This document shows, one piece after another, positions 18,347-64,000 of a stretch of DNA of 64,000 bases. Each line of letters starts with the position of its first letter. The first letter of the stretch is position 1. A program made the position numbers and the translations under genes. Under the pieces are notes generated by a model. The model saw only the letters and a list, made by a program, of their open reading frames with translations, ran no database searches and was not told the DNA's origin. This DNA comes from a virus: IMG/VR virus record IMGVR_UViG_3300017729_000001, positions 26,430 to 90,429 of that record; one strand, given 5' to 3'.

Positions 18347-18607
18347 TTACTCAATTTTTTCCTTTTTTGAAGAATCTTGATTCATATCAATCATTCGCTC
18401 CAAATAGTCTTTCGCCTTTAATAAGTCTGTCAGATTGTGACCTTTGGTTGAGTTGGGTCTTGTAAACCTGTCCAGGTATCTTTTAACATTTTCAGAACAC
18501 CATATGTCACCACGTTCTTTACTTATTCTGTAGTTGGTTGATATCTGGTCGAACTCTCTTGGTCCATACTTACTTCTGTTTGATTCATTTAATTCCTTAA
18601 CGTCCAT
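18347..18607 (-). CDS. DUF3310-like protein
   Basis: NVKRYLDR...KG....DLLKAKDYLERMI matches the N..KY..R...K....DL.KA..YL pattern. Confidence 0.7.
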   Translation of the reverse strand: MDVKELNESNRSKYGPREFDQISTNYRISKERGDIWCSENVKRYLDRFTRPNSTKGHNLTDLLKAKDYLERMIDMNQDSSKKEKIE

Positions 18608-19232
18608 ATTTTGTATAATTTAATGATGAAATATCTACAAGCACTTGTTCTTCAAACTTGCCTCTTTCTTTTAGAGCCTTAAAACACTTGCCTGATGCTT
18701 CTCTTATTTTCTCGACACAATAATCAAACTCCTTGTATAAATCTTTATTGCCCAATGTTATTTCTTTTTTTACATAGAATAACATAGATAACCAATCAGC
18801 CAATTTTACGATGGTTTTAACCACTGGGTCATTATCTCCTAGCAGATACGACTTCAGCATATTGTTAGTTGGACTAAACTCCTTGAATTTAGTGCTTACC
18901 ATATGGTGACAATAGTCATCAATCATTTCTTTTATCTTGTGTCCGTTGTACTTATTGTACTTCACATTATGGGTAATGTCGCCTGAGAACATTTCATCGA
19001 AATCGTGAAATATCGCATATGTAGTTACATCCAATTTTAGCTTTTCTTCACCCTCTGGAAACATCTCTTCAACAAGTATTCTGGAGAACCAAGACACTAT
19101 AAAGGAATGGTGAGCAACTGACTCGTTGTTTATCCTATTCAATCCATTCCACCTTACTAAATTATTCAACTGGTCGTAATCAGCGTCAGTGAATATGTCG
19201 TCAAAAATATTATTCATAATTTTAATTGTCAT
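18597..19232 (-). CDS. HD-domain 5'-deoxynucleotidase / dNTP phosphohydrolase (YfbR-like)
   Basis: RW...ESVAHHSF.V...AIFHDFDEMFSGDI...VK...IVKLADWLS. Confidence 0.88.
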   Translation of the reverse strand: MTIKIMNNIFDDIFTDADYDQLNNLVRWNGLNRINNESVAHHSFIVSWFSRILVEEMFPEGEEKLKLDVTTYAIFHDFDEMFSGDITHNVKYNKYNGHKIKEMIDDYCHHMVSTKFKEFSPTNNMLKSYLLGDNDPVVKTIVKLADWLSMLFYVKKEITLGNKDLYKEFDYCVEKIREASGKCFKALKERGKFEEQVLVDISSLNYTKYGR

Positions 19233-22200
19233 TTAATACTATTAACCTTGACTGCTTATTGAGCCATAGGTGATTATTTCCAGAGCCTTTTGCGTTTTTA
19301 TTTTTCTGATACTTATTGGATAAGGCAAATCCATTTATACAAAATAACAACTTCTTGGACAATAGTTCTTCAAAGTCATCACTCATACTTTCCCAAATTT
19401 CTCCGAACACTCCTAAAAATAAAAGCACGTTGTTATTCTCTACTGTTATCACAACTCTATAATTACCACTTGACTTTGTTCTGTTTACTTTTATTCCTTG
19501 AACCACTCCAGCCACTGTTAATGGTGTTCCATTTGTTTCTGGCTTCCAAGGTTTGCCCTCTCTAAAATCATTCAACTCAAAGTCTTTAGCAGTTGTGTAT
19601 GGATACTTTTTTAATTTGCTAGACTTCTTACGAATCATCGGCATAAAGTCCACATATCCAAAACCAGTCAACTCTCTCTGCTTAATGGCCCAGAACCAAT
19701 TATTGTTATCTTTGTCCTCAGATGGAAACCCTTCAATATACTTGTGACCAGCTAGTTCGCAATGTCTCAAAAGTATGTGCATTCTTTGCTTCACTTCTCC
19801 TATCTCACACCCATTTTCATCTCCTATCTCATCAAGTGCTCCAGCCATGATTAAATGTTGTACAACTCGCTTATTCACTTTTGACTTCGGCACTCTTTTA
19901 TAGAAATCTTCCAAGTCAAAAAACATACCATTCTTTTCCCTTTCTTCTAGTATGTTTTGAACAGCAATTTGCCCTACATTTTTAATTTTAGTAAGTGACC
20001 AATATATCGCATTACTATCAGAATCGGCAGTGAACTGAATATCCGACTTATTTATATCAGGTTGCTTTACTTTTATATCACCCCCAATTTTTTCAATCTC
20101 TGATAATCTATTAGGAATCTCAATTTTTTCATCGGCAAAGTTCAATGACGCTGTCCAAAACTCTAGTGGATATTTTACTTTTAAATATTGGCACCAATAT
20201 CCCATAAGTGAGTAAGCAGCAGAATGCGACCTGTTGAATCCATAGGCTGAAAATGCGTTTAGTTTGTCCCAAATATCATTAGCTTCATCAGTGGGGCATC
20301 CGTTTTCATTCGCACCCTTCAAAAACTTCTCTTTGGCACTTTGCATCTTCTTATGGTCGAACTTTTTTATGGCTGTCCTTAATTCATCTGCTTCAGCTAA
20401 TGTTAGTTTGCCTAACACGTTTACAGCTTGCATTATCTGTTCCTGATAGATATATAGTCCAAAGGTATTTTCAGTCACCTTATCCAACTTAAAATCATAA
20501 ATAGGTTCAAGTTTTCCGTGCTTAATATCTACGAACTTTTCATGTGCCCTACTATCCATTGGACCAGGTCTAAATAAAGCATTCATTGAAATCAAATCTT
20601 CAATACCATCTGGCCTCACTTTTTTAGAATAGTTTTTCAATCCTGACGTTCCAAACTGAAATACATCTTCGTTCCAACCTCGTTTGAAGAATCGCATGAC
20701 ATCCTTTTTATCAATAGGAATCTTATTCAAACTAACTTTCTTGCCCTTATTCTTTTCTATTTCTTTCAGAATGTACTTGAACTTATCTAGTTGTGCGATG
20801 CCCAAGATGTCCTCTTTTAAGAATCCAGCAGCATCAATGTATTTTCCCTCCCATTCTGATACTAACTGACCATCCATCATCTTAATAGGCATCCAATCAT
20901 GAATCTCCATCTTATTACCATCCCCATCGAATTTCGGCACGATTAAAACAGCTGATGGATGAATGGAACCAGACCTTGGTTGTCCAAGTGGTGCCTTTAT
21001 GGCTTCACAAATATCTATATTTTTCTGTACAAACTTCTTCAAGGAATCTTTACCAACGCAACTTTTAAATATATCAGACCACTCTGGGTTATGTGAGTCA
21101 GGAATTTCCCTTGTGGCAAAATTAACGTCATTAAAAGTCAACCCCTTTACTCTTCCAAAATCTTTTATAGCACTTTTAGTTTTTAGCCTTGTGTATGTTC
21201 CTATCGAACAAACATAATTCTTTCCATACTTTTCTTCAATATATCTCTTTACATCTTGTCTTCTCTTACCCTCAAAATCGACATCAATATCAGGCAAAGC
21301 ATCAGCCGACTTAGCACGCTCACCTGAAACCCTAGCTTTGTTAAGAAATCTCTCAAAAAGTAAATCATATTGAATAGGGTCAATTTCAATTATTCCTAGC
21401 AAATATGCTACTAATGAACCTCCAGCTGAACCCCTAGCTGGTCCAACTAGAATGTCTTGACTTTTAGCCCACTCAACAATATCCCAAAGAATCAAAAAGT
21501 AATCTATAAATCCAGCACCTTTGATTACATCATTTTCCTCATCCACCCTATCTAAATAAGCAGCACACTTTTCTGAGTCATCACCGAACTTCATTAAAAC
21601 CTTTTTTTGAAAGCCTTTCATGATTAAATCGTCATAAAGTTTTTCTGGGTCATCAACTTCAAATCTAGGCAACTTATGGTTACCTGTGTCAATCTGGTAG
21701 TTACAAGCATCAGCAATTACTCTAGTGTTTGCCAAACCTCTTATGACCAAATCAAATTTATCTGGACTTGAATTAAACATGGAAACAATTTTATCCACGA
21801 TATCATCAGCATCTTTAAAGTATTGGTCAACGCTATATGGAATGGCTTTTCTGTCTATCTTGTTCAAGTAATCTTTAGTTCCAAAATCTTGCTTCTCAAT
21901 ATAATAGGCATCACTTATCACGACAGGTTTGATTAACTTGCTGAAATTGTCAAAATAAGTCTTCAAATTATTCAAATTCATCAAATCTAATTTATCATCA
22001 TCGAACTCACTAAAATCAATCTGATAATATAAACCATTTCCGAAAAGTTTTTTGTACTTTTTTATGTATTTGATACCAGCTTTCTTGTCTCCACTTATCC
22101 TATTAAAATACCCTTGAGTTGGAAATACGCAAATAAGTCCTTCAGTTTTTTCAAGCAATATTTCTTCTGGAATGAATGAATCGAAATCTACATTTATCAG

Positions 22201-22839
22201 TTTAGATATGTTCAATAAGTTTCTCCAACCAACATAATTCTTGACATATAACTTTAAATCATAGGTGTTCTGGTATTCAGCTTTTTCATCATAGTCAATC
22301 GCAACCGAAATAGTTTGTCCATGTACACACTTGACTCCTTTCTTCTTAGCAGAAAGTTGTAATGGAAGTGTTCCAGCAAGTGTATTCTTTTCGCAAATTC
22401 CTACGACATCGTGATTAAAGAAAGAGCATTTATCAATCCACCTAGATGATTCACCTGAACCATTCAATAATTCATAGCCAGTGTGAACTCCTAGATTAAC
22501 GAACTTGAAATCAAATACGCTTTTATACTCTCCAATATTTATGAGGTCATTGAATACAGGCTCATATACGACATCTCCAGCCTCATCTCGCTTTTCTTCT
22601 AAAGGTGAATAATAGAATTTTGTCCCCCACTTAAAAACCACATGATTCAAATCATCTCTCTCATATAGTAATTCATCTTCATCATCACTAATTAGAAATT
22701 CAAAATCATCTCCAATTATCTTTCCATCAACTCCCTTTAAATATAACATCTTTCCAAAGCCTGGGACATCATAGATATTAGAGTAGTCAAGCTCATAATT
22801 TATGCCCCTAGACTTTAGCCATTCATTTAGTTCAATCAT
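19222..22839 (-). CDS. dnaE: DNA polymerase III alpha subunit (family C)
   Basis: PHP domain (LGVHTGYELLNG), GPARGSAGGSLVAY, LLFERFLN, PDIDVDF, IYQEQIM, YGFNRSHSAAY, PDINKS. Confidence 0.96.
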   Translation of the reverse strand: MIELNEWLKSRGINYELDYSNIYDVPGFGKMLYLKGVDGKIIGDDFEFLISDDEDELLYERDDLNHVVFKWGTKFYYSPLEEKRDEAGDVVYEPVFNDLINIGEYKSVFDFKFVNLGVHTGYELLNGSGESSRWIDKCSFFNHDVVGICEKNTLAGTLPLQLSAKKKGVKCVHGQTISVAIDYDEKAEYQNTYDLKLYVKNYVGWRNLLNISKLINVDFDSFIPEEILLEKTEGLICVFPTQGYFNRISGDKKAGIKYIKKYKKLFGNGLYYQIDFSEFDDDKLDLMNLNNLKTYFDNFSKLIKPVVISDAYYIEKQDFGTKDYLNKIDRKAIPYSVDQYFKDADDIVDKIVSMFNSSPDKFDLVIRGLANTRVIADACNYQIDTGNHKLPRFEVDDPEKLYDDLIMKGFQKKVLMKFGDDSEKCAAYLDRVDEENDVIKGAGFIDYFLILWDIVEWAKSQDILVGPARGSAGGSLVAYLLGIIEIDPIQYDLLFERFLNKARVSGERAKSADALPDIDVDFEGKRRQDVKRYIEEKYGKNYVCSIGTYTRLKTKSAIKDFGRVKGLTFNDVNFATREIPDSHNPEWSDIFKSCVGKDSLKKFVQKNIDICEAIKAPLGQPRSGSIHPSAVLIVPKFDGDGNKMEIHDWMPIKMMDGQLVSEWEGKYIDAAGFLKEDILGIAQLDKFKYILKEIEKNKGKKVSLNKIPIDKKDVMRFFKRGWNEDVFQFGTSGLKNYSKKVRPDGIEDLISMNALFRPGPMDSRAHEKFVDIKHGKLEPIYDFKLDKVTENTFGLYIYQEQIMQAVNVLGKLTLAEADELRTAIKKFDHKKMQSAKEKFLKGANENGCPTDEANDIWDKLNAFSAYGFNRSHSAAYSLMGYWCQYLKVKYPLEFWTASLNFADEKIEIPNRLSEIEKIGGDIKVKQPDINKSDIQFTADSDSNAIYWSLTKIKNVGQIAVQNILEEREKNGMFFDLEDFYKRVPKSKVNKRVVQHLIMAGALDEIGDENGCEIGEVKQRMHILLRHCELAGHKYIEGFPSEDKDNNNWFWAIKQRELTGFGYVDFMPMIRKKSSKLKKYPYTTAKDFELNDFREGKPWKPETNGTPLTVAGVVQGIKVNRTKSSGNYRVVITVENNNVLLFLGVFGEIWESMSDDFEELLSKKLLFCINGFALSNKYQKNKNAKGSGNNHLWLNKQSRLIVLNDN

Positions 22840-24098
22840 AATTCACCTAATGGATATACAAGTTCTTCTTTTAAATCATCGTTCTGGAACTTAGCCGCAA
22901 AGAAATTCACAGCCAATGCCGTAATATCTAACGATGGAAAGAACATTGTGAGGTCTCCAATCTCCTTTATTTTATTAAATCTGAATTCATCCTTGGTTAT
23001 GATACGTTTTTTATCATCATTCAACAACTCTTTATAATGAAGATACAAATCAAGCAAATCATAAATCAAAGCAAAATACTTAGAAAACTCATTCAGTGAA
23101 TCGAAATCTGCTTTGGCCATTCTTTTCCCTGACTTTAAAGTATTGATGATTAAATCTATATATCCATCAACCTCGTGTAATCTACCTTCCACGCTTTCCA
23201 TATTGAACTTCATATCTATATGAGCTGGGTTGTAGCTATCGTACACGTCAGGAATATTATCTCCATCAGAAGCAAATTGCGTATGCTCATACATATTCAT
23301 AGCAATTTCATTCTCCGTGTAGAAATGAAGACTTTGAGAGTTGTGAGTTTGTGTTCCTAGCTTTAAGCCTAAAATATTAGACATAATCTCAGTAATAAAA
23401 CTAAACTGAAACACATTAGTTGGTAACCCCCAATGTAAGTCATTACTCCTATTCGCTATGGTAGTATGAAACTTGCCATCCCTAACTTTAATCATTACAA
23501 GGTCATTACATGGTATATCCTTGCTTTTAGTGCCCAAGTCAAGTTCCGTATTCCATATTGACATTACAGCACGTCTATCATTTGGGTTTTCGCTTAGCAT
23601 CTTCAATACTGTTAAAACTTGGTCTTCACCCTCCATCATCTGTTGAATATGGTGTCCTATATGTTCTGGTGCTCTTGCTTCTTCCTCAAAATTTAATTTA
23701 CCTTGAACTCCATCAGATGGATGAACATATCCTAATCTTGAATCAACTCCATAATGGCGCAATCTAAAACCATATGGCGCATGAAAAACTTTACCATCAT
23801 CTGAAAACTCTGACATCCTAGAATTAAACTTTTTTAGAAAGTCAACATCACGCTCACCTCTAAATATCCAAAGTGCTTCAGCCAATAAAAAGAAAATGTT
23901 GATATCTCTATTACTTGTGCCTACACATCTAGCATATGGATTTTTTAAAGTGGTCTTGAAATTTAGAACTTCTTTAGTTGGACCATATCTACTATCCTCA
24001 CTTTGTCCGTTCTCAATGACGTACTTATTAATTGCTGGGTAAACTTTTGAAAAGATAGGTGCTTTGACACTATCATTTAAAATCTGATTTGAACTCAT
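22836..24098 (-). CDS. thymidylate synthase-family enzyme, likely dUMP hydroxymethyltransferase
   Basis: NIFFLLAEALW, APYGFR, RRAVMSIW, KDIPCN (catalytic Cys), NRSNDLHWGLPTN (Asn = dUMP-type specificity residue), HNSQSLHFY. Confidence 0.8.
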   Translation of the reverse strand: MSSNQILNDSVKAPIFSKVYPAINKYVIENGQSEDSRYGPTKEVLNFKTTLKNPYARCVGTSNRDINIFFLLAEALWIFRGERDVDFLKKFNSRMSEFSDDGKVFHAPYGFRLRHYGVDSRLGYVHPSDGVQGKLNFEEEARAPEHIGHHIQQMMEGEDQVLTVLKMLSENPNDRRAVMSIWNTELDLGTKSKDIPCNDLVMIKVRDGKFHTTIANRSNDLHWGLPTNVFQFSFITEIMSNILGLKLGTQTHNSQSLHFYTENEIAMNMYEHTQFASDGDNIPDVYDSYNPAHIDMKFNMESVEGRLHEVDGYIDLIINTLKSGKRMAKADFDSLNEFSKYFALIYDLLDLYLHYKELLNDDKKRIITKDEFRFNKIKEIGDLTMFFPSLDITALAVNFFAAKFQNDDLKEELVYPLGEL

Positions 24099-26333: not shown

Positions 26334-27292
26334 TTCAATAACTTTACAACCTTTTTGTTAAACTCCATAGGTGTTTTAAGCCTATCGAATATTTCAAAAA
26401 CTTCTTTTTTATCTGAGTCATTGATGTCTTTATTAAAAGTGAACCCTACTTTGACGTTGAAAAACTCATTCAACAAGATGCTATATTTTTTCATTTCTTT
26501 AATAGCATCATAATCATATATCAAAACAACATTCTCAACACCCTTTGACTGTAACTTTAATACCTGAAATTTACTTATTTTCTTACCAAATGTTGCTACA
26601 CATTTAATTTCTTCATCTGAATCTAGTCCTAAATAGTTATCAACACTAATCTTATCAAACAAACCTTCAACTATTATTACAGTTTTTGTTTGGTTAGTTA
26701 TTTCTTCATATCCGAATAGTAAATGACTGAAGTTCACGTTCCTAGCATTATTGTATCTCAGTTTTTTACTTCCCTTTGGAATGCTTTTAGTGTACCTTGA
26801 TAAATAGCCTTTACACTCTCCATCCTCTTCAATTAGAAATATAACATAATTTTTTAATGATGGAACTAAATTTGTGTAACCAATCTTAAACTTATCAAAA
26901 TTACCTTTGGTCATCTTTCTCTTTTTCAAGTATTTGTCCGAATTTACACGCTTGAATCCTATCGGTGGTTTGAACTTTTCGACTTCTAATGACGTAATTT
27001 CATTTTCATTTTCATTTTCAAGTTCAGACAATAATGTTACACGACCACGCTCAACACTTTTGAACTCACCAATTTTAAACAGCTGACCTAGATGGCTCAG
27101 TAATTTTATTATGTTACCCTCTTCACCGCACTTCTTACAATCCCACTGCTGTGAACTCCTATTTATATAAAAGTGTCTATCTTTAAAGCAATATGGACAA
27201 CTAGCAATATAATGATTATGTGGGCCAATTATCGGCTTTTCAAGAATGGACTTTAATTCTATGTCGTCAATTTTACTATTCTTCATCTTCAT
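26330..27292 (-). CDS. dnaG: DNA primase (start probably MKMKNSK near 27292)
   Basis: CPYC...CKKC zinc finger, TOPRIM IIVEGLFD and YDYD. Confidence 0.9.
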   Translation of the reverse strand: MKMKNSKIDDIELKSILEKPIIGPHNHYIASCPYCFKDRHFYINRSSQQWDCKKCGEEGNIIKLLSHLGQLFKIGEFKSVERGRVTLLSELENENENEITSLEVEKFKPPIGFKRVNSDKYLKKRKMTKGNFDKFKIGYTNLVPSLKNYVIFLIEEDGECKGYLSRYTKSIPKGSKKLRYNNARNVNFSHLLFGYEEITNQTKTVIIVEGLFDKISVDNYLGLDSDEEIKCVATFGKKISKFQVLKLQSKGVENVVLIYDYDAIKEMKKYSILLNEFFNVKVGFTFNKDINDSDKKEVFEIFDRLKTPMEFNKKVVKLLK

Positions 27293-57712: not shown

Positions 57713-58123
57713 TCAAATCTCCAAAACTCCTATATCCATACAATTAGAAAACAAGAATGAATATAACAAGTCTTGTTTTGTTTTTGGATTTTTACTTTTA
57801 AAGTCTGCCTTGGACATTGCCTTTAAATCTAAAAAGTCACAAAAGGCATCGTGTATGAAAACTATTTTTTCAGCTTTAACAACAACTGACTTGATTGCGT
57901 CTGAGCAGTCTTTAAATAAATGCGTTTCCATAGTCTTGTCTAAAAAGACTTTTTGGTCATTAGGGTCAACTAATGGAAACTTGCCTTTGAATGGCAATAA
58001 GTCACATGGCTTCTTTTTATATAGAACTGAACTCACTTTCCCAATTCTATTGGTTGTGAACTTATTTCTGTGTAGTTGGTCGCTTTCTAACCCACCATCT
58101 TTCTCTTTTATAAAGTATTCCAT
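57713..58123 (-). CDS. hypothetical protein
   Basis: 136-aa ORF in head-gene region. Confidence 0.55.
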   Translation of the reverse strand: MEYFIKEKDGGLESDQLHRNKFTTNRIGKVSSVLYKKKPCDLLPFKGKFPLVDPNDQKVFLDKTMETHLFKDCSDAIKSVVVKAEKIVFIHDAFCDFLDLKAMSKADFKSKNPKTKQDLLYSFLFSNCMDIGVLEI

Positions 58124-58124
58124 A

Positions 58125-60446
58125 TTACTTAAATTTTCTCACTTTACATTTTCCTCTATTCAAAATAACCGCAAAGTCAGTTTTACCACCCCAACCATTT
58201 TTCTGTACAATAGCATCATACCCTTTTATCGCAGCATAAAACCCTCTGTACTCACCATTTGGTCTTTTCGCTATCTCTAGCATGACTTCATCTAGTGTCG
58301 AACTTCCTACACCTCTCAAGTTATTTACCTCATCAGCAACTGCTTTTAATTTTTGTTGAGCATCTTTTGCTTCTTGCTTTACTTTGTCTATTAGGTCTGA
58401 GTTTTTAGTCCTTTTTGCTATCTCCTTATTTATTTTGCCATAATGTTCTTTTACAACAAAATCTCTTAATCTTGAGTAATGATAATTATATGGCTTGCTG
58501 TATTCATTCTTTTGCTTCAAACTTCGTCCAGCAACTGTTTCGCTCATTATAAATTTATCTCCAGACAATGGTAGTTCAATGCTAATAGCATTTCCATTAT
58601 CATGCTCTTCCACGACAGCACCTAATTGACCAACCAGCGTTTCATAGTATCTTTTTACTTTTCCAAAGCTATGAACTTCTGGGTCAGCATATACAATATC
58701 TGCTCTTGAATTCAATGCGTTTAAAACCTTATCATTCCAACCCATTTCTTCTTTGGTATCGTCAGCAATAGTCTTTTCGATATTGTCTGCTTTATCTTGT
58801 AGAGCATCTACTTCAACTCTCAATTCATCATACTCTTTTTTCTTCTCCTTAAACTCTTCACCAAAGAACTCATCGTTCATCATGGTATCTAGTTCGTGAG
58901 CGTCAATCACCTTGGCATCTTTATCCAAACAAATATCTATAATCGCATCAGAGTCATAACCAGCGTAATCATAAGCAATTTGATAATCTTCATTAGGTGG
59001 TGGTGGATTTGATTTTTTCTTATTTACGGCAGCATAAATTCCTGCTCCATACATTCCATATCTACCATAGAAACAATCTTGATTGTCTGTGAAGTCCTTT
59101 TTAACTGATTGAGCATTTAGTCCGCCATATCCAGTCACACCTCTTTGTAGCAATTTTGAATCTTTTTCAGCAACTAATTTATCAAACTTGGCACTATTAA
59201 TAACCTCTGGTGTAGCATCAAAACCTCTCATCTTACATAATTCAGATAAGAACTTCCAACCCACTTTAGAATCTTGGTTTGTTATATGTCCACCAGCTTT
59301 TTTAAGTGCCTTTTTGATATCCGCATCTTCAAACTCTCTATATGGGTCAAGTTTTGAATAATCAGTATCATCCATTCTTGCCCTTAAATCAAAAAACCTC
59401 TTAGCCATCTTCAACTTTAGGTCTTTATCTTTTATATGACCCAAAACTGCTTTCTCTTTAGAAAGAACATCTTTTAATTGAGTATTGATTTCAACTTGAG
59501 TAATCTTACCTGTGATTTGAAGATTATGAGAAATCATTGATTCCAGTTCATTAACTTCGTCTCCAAAGTCATCCCCCTTATCACGACCTTGCGCTGAGAA
59601 TCTTAAAGAGCCACCATTATCCACTCTATAAACCATCCCATCATCCTTGTTGACTAAGATATTATCATTCTTATAAGCATCCCAATTAGCCAGAAGACAA
59701 TCGGCAACAAACCCTTTCATTATCTCTTTCTTCAGGTTGTCATCTAGCACGCTATTTGCGTCCACTGTGTTATCCATATACTCAGACAAAATAGTGTCGT
59801 CATTATATAGTTGCATCTTAGGAACAGTAACACCTAACTCATCGTAAATTTGAGTAGCAGTATATTCATCTTGAACGTGCTCTGGTGAGGCACCTTTTTT
59901 CATGACAAACTTTTTACCTGTGTCTGGGTCTTCAACTAATAAAGCACCTGTTGAACCCCCTAGTGTCTTACCAACCTTTTTTAGCTTAGTCAAGTCAGTA
60001 GGAAAATCATCATAGTTCTTTGGTGTCTTTACTTTCTTAGGTTGCTTTGTCGCTCTACGCCAATCAAGTTTTCCACTCTTAGTCTTTTTGACGACATACA
60101 TGATTCCACTCTTAACTTTCGTGTCACCTTCAACCAGAGCCTTAAATAGTTCTTGATTTGGTTCTTCTCCACTTAGGAAATCATTAAATGTCTTCGCTTT
60201 TATTAAACCGAATTTTTCAGGTGGTGTCCAATTTGTCTTTTCTCTTACAGAAATAGATGCTTTGATTAAAATCTCGTCAGGTATCAACCCCTTTGAATTT
60301 GAATCAACTATCGTATTGAATGCTTGAATTATTCCACCCTTGTAAAATTCGCTGTTATCGTTTCCACACTCATGGCAAACGAACATGTCGTGACCACCAT
60401 CTTCAGATGGCCACGACCAGTTACAATTTCTACAAGAAATCTCCAT
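58125..60446 (-). CDS. multidomain protein: Zn ribbon + PI3/4-kinase/HipA-like domain + ADP-ribosyltransferase-like domain
   Basis: CRNC..W...CHECG; LGGSTGA...FVMK...E..A..IY..LG...D.LLANWD...DNIL...RVDNGG; QRG...GMYGAGIY...AY.YA...GYDAI...VILNR. Confidence 0.7.
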   Translation of the reverse strand: MEISCRNCNWSWPSEDGGHDMFVCHECGNDNSEFYKGGIIQAFNTIVDSNSKGLIPDEILIKASISVREKTNWTPPEKFGLIKAKTFNDFLSGEEPNQELFKALVEGDTKVKSGIMYVVKKTKSGKLDWRRATKQPKKVKTPKNYDDFPTDLTKLKKVGKTLGGSTGALLVEDPDTGKKFVMKKGASPEHVQDEYTATQIYDELGVTVPKMQLYNDDTILSEYMDNTVDANSVLDDNLKKEIMKGFVADCLLANWDAYKNDNILVNKDDGMVYRVDNGGSLRFSAQGRDKGDDFGDEVNELESMISHNLQITGKITQVEINTQLKDVLSKEKAVLGHIKDKDLKLKMAKRFFDLRARMDDTDYSKLDPYREFEDADIKKALKKAGGHITNQDSKVGWKFLSELCKMRGFDATPEVINSAKFDKLVAEKDSKLLQRGVTGYGGLNAQSVKKDFTDNQDCFYGRYGMYGAGIYAAVNKKKSNPPPPNEDYQIAYDYAGYDSDAIIDICLDKDAKVIDAHELDTMMNDEFFGEEFKEKKKEYDELRVEVDALQDKADNIEKTIADDTKEEMGWNDKVLNALNSRADIVYADPEVHSFGKVKRYYETLVGQLGAVVEEHDNGNAISIELPLSGDKFIMSETVAGRSLKQKNEYSKPYNYHYSRLRDFVVKEHYGKINKEIAKRTKNSDLIDKVKQEAKDAQQKLKAVADEVNNLRGVGSSTLDEVMLEIAKRPNGEYRGFYAAIKGYDAIVQKNGWGGKTDFAVILNRGKCKVRKFK

Positions 60447-60454
60447 AATTTGTT

Positions 60455-61951
60455 TTAATTTAGACCTAGTTGAGTCAACGCTTTTTGAAGGTCATTACCT
60501 TTCTCTTCAGAAAGTGTGATACCTTTTTTCAAGAATCTGCCAACTTCCTCTTTCCAGTCTTGTTCTTCACCGAATATTAAGGAAGCAGTTGTTGGGTCAG
60601 ACTCAATCATTGCATTTGAGTTGTCCACTGCTCTTTTCTTAACTAATGCTTCCATGAAAGTTCTTGAACTAAACTTATCTGGGTCCATCGCATCAATATT
60701 GTCTTTAATCATGTCAAACACTTCCTCACGTTCTTGAATATCATCGGCTTTATTTTCTAGCCTTTCAACACCTGTGAAATTCGTTTTGTGTTTTAGAATT
60801 TCCATCATCTCCAACTTTTCTCTTTTCGTGAAATTCAAGTCCTTTTTAATTGCTCTCGTGTAGATAGCATTCAAGTGCTCATTTTTCGTTAAGTCATGTT
60901 GTCCCATATTCGTCAGAAATAATATTTTTCCTGTGAACTCAAATGGGTCAACATTAGTTGATTTGTTTGAAGATTTTTTACCCAAAATTCTTTTACCTGA
61001 TGACGCAGTAGCTTTTTTCATAATACCCATAGTATCTGATTGCTTCAGTACATTATCAGAATCGTCAAACACGATTGTTTTTCCATTATGCTCTTTAAGT
61101 AAGGAAACAAGTTGAGTGTCTGATTTTACTTCTGGTGCTTCTACATAATCGTAATCATCATCTCCAGGCTCATCAGTTTCTCCGTTGAAAGCCTTATTGC
61201 CCATATGCTCAGCTACCAAGTGCATATTATAAGACTTACCTACACCTGCTCCACCTGACGCTATCATTAATGGAGAGTCAGTTGCGAAGAACTGCGCATA
61301 AGTCCTATTCAAACTATGAATTTCTTTTTGTGGCTCAATGTATCCATCTTCCGCAGTTTTCTGAGAATGTATAAACGCATCTGCTTCAATACGCTGTCTT
61401 TTAGTTTTTAGACCTCCAAATTGCTTTTTGATGAAGTCTGGGTTTCGCCAGTCCTCTTCCATGCCTGGTTCATCATCACCTCCTACTATATCATCAACGC
61501 TATCTCCATCAGTAGCAGTAGCAGTTTTCTTTGAGCTGTTCTTTTTAGAACTTCCGTCACCTCCAAATGCCTCTTTCATTGCTTTGAACTTTCCTGTGTT
61601 CAAATTAATTTTAGATACATCTTCACCTCTCGCTACAAGTTCATTGTATGACTCTTGTCTTAAAGTTGGATCATTATTATGTCCTCTGGCATATTTCTCT
61701 AGGTCAGCAACATCTTTTTTCTTCAGCGTTGCTCTTAGCTTTTGAACTTTATTTTGAGTTTGTTGAGCACCCCCTTGTCCAGAACTGCCTTTTGGTGGAT
61801 TTTTTCTCCAATCGTATTTTCCTGATGATAGCCTTGTCCAATATCTGGTCACTCCATCTTTTCCGATTTTAGTATCACCCTCTTGACGTGCTGCTGCTTT
61901 GGTCAAGTTTTGGTTGACTAATTCTCCAATGATATCTGATGTTTTTTTCAT
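60455..61951 (-). CDS. AAA-type P-loop ATPase with long low-complexity N-terminal extension
   Basis: GGAGVGKS Walker A, IVFDDSD Walker B, FEFTGKILFLTN sensor-1, AIYTR. Confidence 0.8.
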   Translation of the reverse strand: MKKTSDIIGELVNQNLTKAAARQEGDTKIGKDGVTRYWTRLSSGKYDWRKNPPKGSSGQGGAQQTQNKVQKLRATLKKKDVADLEKYARGHNNDPTLRQESYNELVARGEDVSKINLNTGKFKAMKEAFGGDGSSKKNSSKKTATATDGDSVDDIVGGDDEPGMEEDWRNPDFIKKQFGGLKTKRQRIEADAFIHSQKTAEDGYIEPQKEIHSLNRTYAQFFATDSPLMIASGGAGVGKSYNMHLVAEHMGNKAFNGETDEPGDDDYDYVEAPEVKSDTQLVSLLKEHNGKTIVFDDSDNVLKQSDTMGIMKKATASSGKRILGKKSSNKSTNVDPFEFTGKILFLTNMGQHDLTKNEHLNAIYTRAIKKDLNFTKREKLEMMEILKHKTNFTGVERLENKADDIQEREEVFDMIKDNIDAMDPDKFSSRTFMEALVKKRAVDNSNAMIESDPTTASLIFGEEQDWKEEVGRFLKKGITLSEEKGNDLQKALTQLGLN

Positions 61952-61980
61952 AAGTGAAATAATGTTTTTCTTTACCTCAC

Positions 61981-61991
61981 TTAATACCTGT
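61981..61991 (-). promoter_or_regulatory. putative late promoter box ACAGGTATTAA
   Basis: Intergenic, about 30 nt upstream of ATPase ATG; identical to box before capsid gene. Confidence 0.55.
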
Positions 61992-62007
61992 CTATGCCAT
62001 CATTTCA

Positions 62008-63432
62008 TTATGACCAATCAATAGGAACATCACATCCAAAGAATTCAGTCATGATTTTTTCACTTTGCTTAATAACTACTTCTGAATTTTCACCGCAAGA
62101 TAACCTCTTTAACTTTTTGGTACTCATAGAATTATCAATGACTCTTTTCATATTTATCACTGGGTCAAATAATATCTGAGCCAACTTAAAGTTATGCTGA
62201 ATGTCCTCTAAGTATTTTTCACTTTTCATTTTTAAGGCTTCATTTAAGTAACCAGCAAACTGCTTTGGAGTAACATCCCATGGTACATATATTGCTCGCA
62301 GTTCTTCATGAATGATATCTTCAATTTCGCATTTTGGTTCCACCAATCCTCTAGTATCTCTCAACACAGGATATGAACCATTAATGATAGCTTCAATAGT
62401 GAAACCATTTAAGTGCGTATTTGAATATTGAGCATAGTGCTTACTGAATGAAGGGTCAACGCTGAACTTAGCATTTTTCTGAACCATATACACATCTTCA
62501 TTAGACATGAAACCCATATGCTCCATTCCGTGTTTTTTAGCACGTTCCCATAAACTCATTCCTATTTCATCAGGGTCACAATCTGGGTCAGTTTTTAATG
62601 ACGCTGTGTATTTAGGCTTGAACTTGCTTTCATCAGTAGTGGTCATATAATATAGCTCTATTCCACTACCACCTATCCACATGCTAGAGCCTTTATTCAG
62701 ATGTGGCGTCAATGATAATAAATCTTCCATCTTTTTCATAGACTTAAACACATGAGCCGCAAAAAAGTCAACTGGTCGTTCAGACATTGTAGTCAAGTGT
62801 AGATTGTCTGGAATGTACCTAGATGCGAAATTTAATTGTCTTGGTATATCGAAATTATCACAACAGTTGTACGCTGATAAATGTACGCAATCTAGTAAAG
62901 TAATTTTTTCACTTAGGTATCTTATCCAACTATTTCTGATATCAAAATAGCCATCGTGAACTGCCATTACTTGCTTAGTTCTTTCTGGTAAGTCAAAAAA
63001 CTTCGGCCAAAAGTTTAACCCCTTTGCTTCTTTAGTCTTGGTTGGCGTAAAACTCCAGAACACTAAATCTACATCTTCCAAAGCCTTATGCCATAACTCT
63101 AATGCGTTGTCAGCAAATATTGGTATTCTATTAGTATATGGAGGCAGTAACCAACCATAGTAGGAATTTCTCCAATAACCAGTTATTTCAGATTTTGTAT
63201 AACCCCCAGCCTGTGACCTATAATCTTGCTTGTCTTGCCAAACACCATCTTCAAGGTCTTTAATCTTTTTGTTGTAAGAATTAATTGGAATGGTTTTGTT
63301 ATAAGTAAGGAATATGATATCAACATCGTGACCCATTTCCTTAAACGCTTGAACTCTGCTTTCTACGTTCTTAACAATACCGCCATACTTAGCAATGTCA
63401 AACGTACAAATTCTAATCTTTAATTTTTTCAT
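62008..63432 (-). CDS. GT-B fold glycosyltransferase
   Basis: KIRIC......GGI...........MGHDVDII N-terminus; VHD; K....L; C-terminal VDPS......NGFTIEAI..G..PV. Confidence 0.75.
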   Translation of the reverse strand: MKKLKIRICTFDIAKYGGIVKNVESRVQAFKEMGHDVDIIFLTYNKTIPINSYNKKIKDLEDGVWQDKQDYRSQAGGYTKSEITGYWRNSYYGWLLPPYTNRIPIFADNALELWHKALEDVDLVFWSFTPTKTKEAKGLNFWPKFFDLPERTKQVMAVHDGYFDIRNSWIRYLSEKITLLDCVHLSAYNCCDNFDIPRQLNFASRYIPDNLHLTTMSERPVDFFAAHVFKSMKKMEDLLSLTPHLNKGSSMWIGGSGIELYYMTTTDESKFKPKYTASLKTDPDCDPDEIGMSLWERAKKHGMEHMGFMSNEDVYMVQKNAKFSVDPSFSKHYAQYSNTHLNGFTIEAIINGSYPVLRDTRGLVEPKCEIEDIIHEELRAIYVPWDVTPKQFAGYLNEALKMKSEKYLEDIQHNFKLAQILFDPVINMKRVIDNSMSTKKLKRLSCGENSEVVIKQSEKIMTEFFGCDVPIDWS

Positions 63433-64000
63433 AATACTCTTCTGGTAATGCTTTATCTATATAACGCTGTTCAAAGAACAAAAATGAGCTTTGAGTTTTG
63501 TAGTATTTCTTAAACAACTCTATTTTCCCCTCATGATTTTCATCACTGAGTTCTTTTAACTGAAATAAAGTGTCAACAACACCTACTAAATACGCTTGGT
63601 TTCTCCTTTTATAACTATGAGGAAAATCACGATAAAAAACATCTGCCAAATTATGAGTAATTACTCTGACCAACCAGTGAAACGGATGTCCAACACCCAT
63701 ACACGTTACAATCTCATATCCAATCTTTTTGTAGTTAGTCACAACTGTTTCTAATTCCTGAGACACCATCGCAAGATTGTCAGCACCCATTTTATTCTCG
63801 CAAAATTTCATAGCAGACATATCGTCCATTACTTTATTATCAGCATAATACTCCTTATGGAATCCTGTCGAATCGGATGGAGTTTGAAGTCTGACTAATT
63901 GCGCACCGAAATGGTTACATATTTCTTGGTCTTCAAGTAATCTCTTTGGATTATTTTCTACAGTTAGAATAACCTTTTTTTCATACTCTGAGTCATACAA
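63413..64000 (-). CDS. PIG-L/LmbE-like deacetylase family protein (5' end probably outside window)
   Basis: VILTV...R..ED......GA...L; CMGVGHPFHWLVR (cf. P.G.GHPDH..VR); FYRDFPH; K.....YY.TQ; PEE. Confidence 0.65.
   Translation of the reverse strand: MYDSEYEKKVILTVENNPKRLLEDQEICNHFGAQLVRLQTPSDSTGFHKEYYADNKVMDDMSAMKFCENKMGADNLAMVSQELETVVTNYKKIGYEIVTCMGVGHPFHWLVRVITHNLADVFYRDFPHSYKRRNQAYLVGVVDTLFQLKELSDENHEGKIELFKKYYKTQSSFLFFEQRYIDKALPEEYYEKIKD

Follow-up and report, generated by a model that had tools for sequence, protein, structure and literature searches.

On which acceptor does a phage glycosyltransferase (GT) act when its gene overlaps one for a PIG-L/LmbE-fold protein and both lie among head-morphogenesis genes? 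This question is raised by the final 64 kb of a 90,429-nt virus record (IMG/VR record IMGVR_UViG_3300017729_000001, positions 26,430 to 90,429), a stretch of 64,000 nucleotides referred to here as the window, at the end of which such a pair is found. An earlier note on this DNA had proposed that the pair modifies 5-hydroxymethyluracil (hmU) in the phage genome, along a route that leads from 5-hydroxymethyldeoxyuridine (hmdU) through an N-acetylhexosaminyl base (HexNAc-hmU) to hexosamine-hmU. This remains the best-supported reading of the locus, to which four lines of sequence evidence would point: the residues of a thymidylate synthase (TS) homologue, a natural fusion of a related GT to an HMUDK_hel domain, the replacement of the GT by a TAGT enzyme in sister phages, and the intact motifs of the PIG-L-like protein. 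We consider the full pathway in phage DNA moderately probable, and the narrower claim that the GT glycosylates hmU DNA somewhat more so. The pair most likely acts late, after replication, in a pathway of thymidine replacement and hypermodification.

The gene pair itself is secure. IMG/VR classes the record as 100% complete with direct terminal repeats, and its first 107 nt (G000:C1:1-107, where G000:C1 denotes the record) are an exact repeat of positions 90323-90429, which correspond to 63894-64000 of the window; owing to this end repeat, the final gene of the window carries on at the start of the record across a circular junction. The first 22 codons of the PIG-L-like gene are located at G000:C1:108-173, and the open reading frame (ORF) that spans the junction encodes 217 amino acids, with an N-terminus formed by a beta-strand followed by the motif HSDD. 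The earlier note had described two overlapping genes, a second motif that reads HPFH in place of HxDH, and a first motif, HxDD, that lay outside the window. All of this holds: the two ORFs overlap by 20 nt, their high-confidence models adopt the GT-B and LmbE folds (Table 1), HPFH is read correctly, and the worry about the unseen first motif is settled by the HSDD in the junction-spanning ORF. Every ORF of at least 150 amino acids in the window is on the minus strand, apart from a few plus-strand ORFs (the longest of 231 amino acids) that overlap longer ones on the minus strand.

The strongest single argument for DNA glycosylation comes from sister phages. When the major head protein was used as query, a sister subclade emerged whose complete genomes measure about 100 kb; among the ten that are at least 90% complete, nine are without this GT and all ten retain the PIG-L-like, TS-like and HMUDK_hel genes. 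In 13 of 14 sister loci, a member of TAGT, the base-J-type family of TET-associated DNA glycosyltransferases, lies between the PIG-L-like gene and the gene for a P-loop protein; in the remaining locus (L189) a GT-B takes this slot. The sister TAGT scores 49.8 bits against PF20691 (cut-off 27.5); each of the five sister genomes tested matches above that cut-off and has two TAGT genes. The presence in the same slot of a family known only from DNA-base glycosylation suggests that the GT-B enzyme, too, may act on a DNA base.

A further argument is provided by HMUDK_hel. The phage encodes a stand-alone HMUDK_hel protein of 346 amino acids outside the window, between terminase and portal (G000:C1:13500-14540), which matches PF18723 at E 1.2e-50 over profile positions 3-279 of 281. 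This protein is homologous to gp50 of PaMx11, located inside the thymidine-hypermodification cluster of that phage, and has homologues in 354 cultured-phage records, mostly of Salmonella, Pseudomonas, Vibrio and Klebsiella phages but also of Bacillus phages such as SP-10; one of them is annotated as 'aGPT-pyrophosphorylase clade 1'. HMUDK_hel is a hallmark of thymidine-hypermodifying phages. Within the GT family, the P0219/P0344 cluster consists of proteins of about 830 amino acids in which a GT-B half is joined to a C-terminal HMUDK_hel domain (E 9.7e-86). P0344 belongs to the GT family by profile (E 6.6e-58) and shares 26% identity with residues 1-458 of the window GT (pairwise E 2e-37). Its locus, a 5-kb metagenome contig (L199), encodes an HAD/APH-like kinase, a cytidylyltransferase, the GT-B::HMUDK_hel fusion and, directly after it, a TS-like protein in which an Asp again stands three residues before the Cys. 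A tie between the GT family and hmU DNA is supported by this natural fusion, and the L199 cluster suggests that another lineage may supply its own nucleotide sugar for DNA glycosylation.

Other parts of the known hypermodification machinery were looked for in the genome of the window phage. The amino acid:DNA transferase (AADT) family PF18724 was not found there, in a search whose PaMx11 positive control worked, and the P-loop hmU kinase family PF18748 was not found in a search that had no positive control. When 11 proteins of the PaMx11 cluster were compared with the genome by phmmer, gp50 and gp51 alone matched, and gp46 and gp49 had no match.

The supply of hmU is expected from the TS homologue, which the earlier note had named as a hydroxymethylase-like gene and which is real by its Pfam match (Table 1). 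Its best matches among cultured phages are SPO1-like phages, SP8 and PaMx11, and since these are hmU phages they support the hydroxymethylase reading. An Asn at position 177 of Escherichia coli TS goes with deoxyuridine monophosphate (dUMP) and an Asp there with deoxycytidine monophosphate, an acidic residue at L143 indicates hydroxymethylation, and D169N is the mark of 5-hydroxycytosine synthases (PMC13326640). The TS homologue, whose Pro-Cys pair aligns to the catalytic site, has an Asp three residues ahead of the catalytic Cys, and carries an Asp where the E. coli enzyme has D169 and an Asn where it has N177; the position of L143 was mapped by counting three back from the Cys, the HMMER alignment being gapped there. 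By the positions given in PMC13326640, these residues would mark the enzyme as hydroxymethylating and dUMP-specific and not as a 5-hydroxycytosine synthase. Twenty of the 21 relatives compared retain these motifs, and the 21st is truncated by a contig end. Two adjoining genes fit the same picture, as the polymerase may incorporate hmdUTP and the HD-domain enzyme may deplete thymidine nucleotides; in PaMx11, a known thymidine hypermodifier, a YfbR-like family protein (gp52) adjoins the hydroxymethylase. Co-occurrence of the pair with the TS-like gene had been proposed as a check, and the gene is present in all 31 clade genomes that are at least 89% complete, a weak test as all 31 are kin.

Table 1. 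Genes of the proposed pathway in the window (positions 1 to 64,000), with the evidence for each assignment
Feature	Coordinates	Strand	Evidence
GT-B glycosyltransferase, proposed hmU-DNA HexNAc transferase	62008..63432	-	474 aa; AF2 model, fold matches, fusion alignment
PIG-L/LmbE-fold protein, proposed de-N-acetylase	63413..64000	-	3' 195 codons; motifs, fold, profile
TS homologue, dUMP-hydroxymethylase signature, proposed 5-hmdUMP source	22836..24098	-	Pfam Thymidylat_synt E 1.3e-25; phrog_5131 E 1.7e-69
DNA polymerase, 1205 aa, overlaps TS-like gene	19222..22839	-	phrog_405 E 1.9e-224
HD-domain YfbR-like nucleotidase/dNTP hydrolase	18597..19232	-	phrog_7076 E 1.6e-22; Pfam YfbR-like E 3.5e-18

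The structure of the GT is consistent with such an activity. The AlphaFold (AF2) model built from an alignment of homologues has a predicted local distance difference test (pLDDT) of 94.1 and displays the two-Rossmann GT-B fold, with 997 of 998 aligned chains at a Z of at least 2 and glycosyltransferase-type enzymes only (Z 19-25) among the best 50 structure entries. Its best matches in the PDB by Foldseek and VIA-align are entries of the T4 DNA alpha-glucosyltransferase (AGT), with Z 25.4-24.8 and a root-mean-square deviation of 3.5-3.7 over 338-349 aligned residues; HepE, PimA, BshA (Z 22.6) and MshA (Z 20.5) score a little below AGT and the teichoic-acid enzyme TarM. Among predicted viral structures, the best matches after an orthologue are two proteins named 'DNA alpha-GT', and the top 17 include two GTs from Bacillus phage SP-15.

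Sequence searches are less informative. Neither the GT nor the PIG-L-like protein of the window has a significant Pfam or PHROG match individually, the only Pfam match of the GT being Glyco_transf_5 at E 0.012, under the cut-off, and a profile search of the PDB with the GT returned nothing useful. The family member P0344 does match PF00534 (Glycos_transf_1) with 30.5 bits against a cut-off of 26.4. Metagenomes yielded 71 homologues of the GT and 135 of its PIG-L-like partner, frequently from contigs of matching length, and a profile search of 1.84 billion representatives identified 232 members of the GT family; the distant members P0195 and P0202 gave no IMG/VR loci. Against cultured phages, megablast of positions 60000-64000 found no match, and neither did tblastn with the GT, its distant member P0206, the sister-clade TAGT or the PIG-L homologue P0072, so that no cultured relative carrying the pair was found.

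The fold of the partner was modelled on P0072, a full-length homologue that is 93% identical to the window protein. The model has a pLDDT of 95.5. In Foldseek the first eight ranks are taken by the glycopeptide deacetylases Dbv21 and Orf2* (E 8.8e-7 to 1.5e-4), and BshB, MshB and diacetylchitobiose deacetylases come next. A sequence profile of the PIG-L-like protein also matches Dbv21 (E 8.7e-4). Residues H11, D13, D14, H127, P128 and H130 are invariant across 47 aligned homologues, 20 of which match Pfam PIG-L (PF02585) at E <= 0.01, the best at 6e-6. Both motifs, HxDD with its metal ligands and general base and HPxH, are intact in each of the 70 PIG-L genes that adjoin a GT-B, a count for which 64 genes were scored by a script pattern and six were read by eye. 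Such strict retention, in 70/70 loci and 47/47 homologues, speaks for catalysis by the PIG-L-like protein, and by analogy with its structural relatives the reaction would be a de-N-acetylation.

The coupling of the two genes is also conserved. Of 74 IMG/VR loci fetched with the GT, four start inside that gene, and in all of the 70 that have upstream sequence the PIG-L gene is directly upstream. The order of transcription begins with terminase, the HMUDK_hel protein, a 949-aa protein, portal, and genes of unknown function with an endolysin-like gene, and continues with a protein of about 300 amino acids, PIG-L, GT, a 498-aa P-loop protein, a 773-aa protein, a 136-aa protein, the prohead protease and the major head protein. 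Four loci retain the pair without the P-loop and 773-aa genes, which makes the pair independent of them. The protein of about 300 amino acids is conserved in the stretch from the portal gene to the pair and has no Pfam or PHROGs match; it may be gp7/MuF-like, a label suggested by a motif and unsupported by any search. The PIG-L-like gene has a radical-SAM/SPASM gene as its neighbour in 20 loci of the GT-B clade (e.g., L030:8389-9357) and in all 14 sister loci (L185-L198); the window phage's own genome lacks this gene. The sole PDB sequence matches of its product are to BtrN of butirosin (aminoglycoside) biosynthesis, and such a neighbour would fit the tailoring of an amino sugar.

These elements can be assembled into a pathway. 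The TS homologue, according to its family signature, would convert dUMP to 5-hydroxymethyl-dUMP, the HD nucleotidase would reduce the thymidine nucleotide pool, and the phage polymerase would assemble hmU-containing DNA. Late, the GT-B enzyme would move an N-acetylhexosamine, probably from host UDP-N-acetylglucosamine (UDP-GlcNAc), onto the 5-hydroxymethyl group of hmU in DNA, and the stand-alone HMUDK_hel protein may assist in this step, as the fusion would imply. The translationally coupled PIG-L/LmbE enzyme would strip the N-acetyl group, a role suggested by its motifs and by analogy with MshA/MshB, BshA/BshB and the teicoplanin GT/Orf2* couple; the sequence of the two steps, GT and then deacetylase, is likewise proposed by analogy. 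The outcome would be a base-borne hexosamine with a free, protonatable amine, which a BtrN-like radical-SAM enzyme may tailor further in relatives. By analogy with hypermodified phage DNAs, the benefit could consist of protection against host nucleases and partial charge neutralisation of the packaged DNA.

A number of observations weigh against this pathway, some of them concerning the sugar, others the acceptor and others the breadth of the evidence. As to the sugar, the proposed donor is suggested solely by the partnership with a PIG-L enzyme. In that enzyme the second motif, HPFH, keeps both His residues invariant but has a Phe for the usual Asp of HxDH, a motif whose final His serves PIG-L/LmbE enzymes as a metal ligand, and the window fragment and P0072 taken singly have no Pfam PIG-L match. 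The PIG-L-like proteins of the sister loci (L185-L198) are degenerate, none of the 14 having intact motifs (the first Asp is changed to Gly, the last His to Asn, and the first His sometimes to Gln), and at L189 a GT-B is paired with one of these degenerate proteins. Since such proteins are retained nonetheless, the fold can evidently persist without a canonical site.

It can therefore be asked whether the phage simply places glucose or another hexose on hmU, in the manner of base J, with the PIG-L-fold protein serving as a structural protein, a DNA-binding protein or some other hydrolase. The decay in the sister loci would agree with this, as would the use of UDP-glucose by T4 AGT, the closest solved fold (according to PDB titles), and the occurrence of a hydratase, GalB, among the LmbE-fold matches. 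Against it stands the strict retention of HxDD and HPxH in all 70 GT-B-coupled genes and all 47 aligned homologues, which favours a catalytic role, and the overlapping, always-adjacent arrangement is that of known GlcNAc-transferase/deacetylase pairs. We regard glycosylation with a neutral sugar as unlikely.

A strict rule, that the deacetylase decays once the GT-B is lost, was also considered but is weakened by the distribution of the motifs. The split between 70/70 and 0/14 intact proteins follows one clade boundary, and L189 combines a GT-B with a degenerate partner; the decay thus amounts to no more than a single event, from which L189 deviates.

As to the acceptor, TarM, a teichoic-acid GlcNAc transferase, aligns to the GT with a Z of 24.9, less than one Z unit from T4 AGT, and because of this tie the acceptor cannot be read from the fold by itself. 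The AGT family (PF11440) is absent from the Pfam scan of the GT at E <= 1, so that the likeness to AGT is structural alone, and TAGT (PF20691) has no match in the window phage's own genome, the GT included. The pair also lies among head-morphogenesis genes, about 38 kb from the synthase, a caveat that the earlier note had raised and that the flanking portal, prohead protease and major head genes bear out. Phage GTs encoded beside structural genes are thought to glycosylate virion proteins in some mycobacteriophages, and the pair could in the same way put an amino sugar on capsid or head proteins. Its position between the gene for the 300-aa protein and the protease and major head genes, in an order conserved across the clade, would accord with this, as would the tie of TarM-like GlcNAc transferases with AGT and the deduction of capsid glycosylation from two phage GTs in an abstract (PMC11256854). 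This explanation leaves three things unaccounted for, namely the HMUDK_hel fusion beside a TS-like gene, the TAGT replacement in sister phages, and the DNA methylase and pyrophosphatase genes of relatives in the same hot-spot. The position among head genes, moreover, is no argument against a role in DNA, given that the HMUDK_hel gene is also found in the packaging module; the caveat is softened further by the statement, in the abstract of PMC13326640, that such group transfers occur late, leading up to packaging. Glycosylation of virion proteins appears to us distinctly unlikely.

Highly improbable is a third alternative, a glucosamine (GlcN) conjugate resembling a thiol cofactor or an envelope precursor that would alter host physiology or surface, for although the GT4/LmbE pairs MshA/MshB and BshA/BshB make small-molecule GlcN conjugates and the structure of the GT also matches those of BshA and MshA (Z 22.6 and 20.5), the fusion and the TAGT replacement point to DNA, and a partial scan of about 50 of 109 called proteins revealed no further gene of a thiol pathway.

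As to breadth, the hexosamine-hmU pathway has to reckon with the occurrence of the fusion in one of 150 listed GT-family representatives (plus its cluster mate P0344), and as only P0344 gave a locus, the fusion evidence rests on a single cluster. The co-occurrence of the TS-like gene in 21/21 and 12/15 cases comes from one phage clade and is non-independent. In two fragments (L159 and L160), the gene for the 300-aa protein is followed directly by the P-loop gene, without PIG-L or GT.

Beyond the pathway, it can be speculated that HMUDK_hel, formerly 'aGPT-Pplase clade 1', is a general recognition module for hmU DNA with swappable catalytic partners, so that phages of the ViI/M6 type would pair it with a P-loop kinase and the phages considered here with a GT-B or a TAGT, and that a phage clade widespread in marine and gut habitats makes a cationic glucosaminyl-hmU that is tailored by BtrN-like radical-SAM enzymes in relatives into an aminoglycoside-like DNA adduct. 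Such a base would be of a new class, and its PIG-L enzyme the first to act on nucleic acid. We put this wider view forward tentatively, as a possibility that is doubtful at present.

Several neighbouring genes deserve mention in their own right. The 498-aa P-loop protein (window 60455-61951, minus strand), encoded directly downstream of the GT, belongs to phrog_1250 (function unknown), and a PDB profile search with it gave nothing useful; a 314-aa protein at G000:C1:16104-17048 has weak tblastn similarity to its P-loop region. The 773-aa protein (window 58125-60446, minus strand), whose gene adjoins the pair in most relatives, comprises a Cys-rich N-terminus, a kinase-like middle with a weak match to HipA_C (E 0.11), and a conserved Gly/Tyr-rich block, and had no match in a profile search of the PDB. 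The stretch between the gene for the 300-aa protein, PIG-L and GT is a hot-spot of varying genes in relatives. Its upstream part holds, in various relatives (L051:5152-7115, L062, L034:9297-10004, L012 and L008:7890-8954), an InPase pyrophosphatase accompanied by an unknown protein of 460 or 313 amino acids, an N6/N4 DNA methylase, or an FkbM methyltransferase, and genes for GIY-YIG homing endonucleases are present in the hot-spot of 12 loci. Two candidate cell-wall hydrolases are encoded outside the window on the minus strand, a glucosaminidase-domain protein (G000:C1:14527-15054; Pfam E 1.2e-17) and an endolysin-like protein (G000:C1:2033-2650; phrog_33083). One IMG/VR record of 199,131 nt (G028) has two copies each of the PIG-L-like, TS-like and HMUDK_hel genes and is probably made up of two related genomes merged in a single record.

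The locus recurs in seawater. In a comparison with assembled contigs of sequencing runs, 20 runs from 19 studies, nearly all labelled as seawater, hold the 10 kb around the pair partly or wholly, and in one run from another study a single contig extends across 57888-64000 with four differences. Contigs from three RNA-library runs touch 63006-63577, for which DNA carry-over may be responsible, and 62149-62850 has no RNA-library cover, which proves nothing. Relatives were found in three metagenome-assembled genome bins (Sulfuricurvum, Bacteroidales and Ginsengibacter), an outcome of binning and not a proof of host, and the nearest cultured terminase, at 35% identity, is that of Bacteroides phages. 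Because the clade is common, DNA of the proposed kind could affect restriction, CRISPR targeting, library bias and nanopore base-calling in marine viromes. If the pathway is correct, it would add a new nucleobase, open a further class of substrates to LmbE/PIG-L enzymes, and would assign a role to HMUDK_hel in genomes without the kinase; the enzymes could also serve as tools for labelling hmU.

Modified bases described so far, in the literature searched, include glycosyl-5-hydroxymethylcytosine (glycosyl-hmC), glycosyl-5-hydroxycytosine, amino-acid-derived thymidines and the SP-15-type thymidines with a sugar on a phosphate linker (10.1101/2023.12.21.572611; PMC13326640; PMC8989533; PMC12686479; PMC11472151). 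Neither a PIG-L deacetylase in a DNA pathway nor a hexosamine on hmU was found described in this literature, in a search that covered main texts as far as accessible, with supplements and subscription journals outside it. The phages SP-15, YerA41 and Carin-5 parallel the proposed pathway in having thymidine-derived bases with a hexose or HexNAc, and the Carin-5 cluster contains glycosyltransferase genes along with one annotated as encoding a polysaccharide deacetylase (PMC12686479). They differ in that their sugar is carried on a phosphorylated hydroxypentyl linker, the deacetylase is annotated differently and the pathways are unsolved (PMC12686479).

Closer in its genes is the kinase/AADT hypermodification of ViI, M6, PaMx11, SP10 and phiW-14, which shares with the present system a dUMP hydroxymethylase, an HD nucleotidase, HMUDK_hel and, if the prediction made here holds, an amine-bearing product (PMC8989533). 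No kinase or transferase of that route was found here, and the hydroxyl group would receive a sugar where that route phosphorylates and substitutes it. Base J and its TAGT/JGT enzymes (PF20691) have in common with the proposed pathway the hmU-DNA acceptor, and TAGT occupies the same slot in sister phages; the window phage, however, is without a TAGT match, its hmU would come from a TS homologue, and its enzyme has the GT-B fold. TAGT is a GT-A-fold family. A search of the window phage's genome for Tet/JBP proteins gave no match, in the absence of a positive control. In one study, the phage DNA glycosyltransferases contrasted with those of GT-B type are of GT-A fold, and GT-B matches are often located near TS homologues (10.1101/2023.12.21.572611).

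T4 AGT and the glucosyl-hmC of the T-even phages provide the parallel for the enzyme itself, with a GT-B fold and a hydroxymethyl-pyrimidine, made before replication by a TS homologue, that is glycosylated on DNA. The differences are that no match to the AGT sequence family exists, that hmU is predicted here and not hmC, and that the coupled deacetylase would imply an N-acetyl-amino sugar. For the pair, the parallels are MshA/MshB, BshA/BshB, PIG-A/PIG-L and the teicoplanin GT/Orf2* couple, in all of which a GT-B GlcNAc transferase is followed by an LmbE-fold zinc de-N-acetylase; their acceptors are small molecules, lipids or glycopeptides, whereas here a DNA base is proposed and the motif is HPFH. 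To our knowledge, thymine or cytosine is disguised in two ways, by glycosylated hydroxymethyl-pyrimidines (T-even phages, base J) or by amine-bearing thymidines (ViI, M6, phiW-14), and an amino sugar on hmU, if it is indeed made, would join the glycosylation strategy to the amine strategy.

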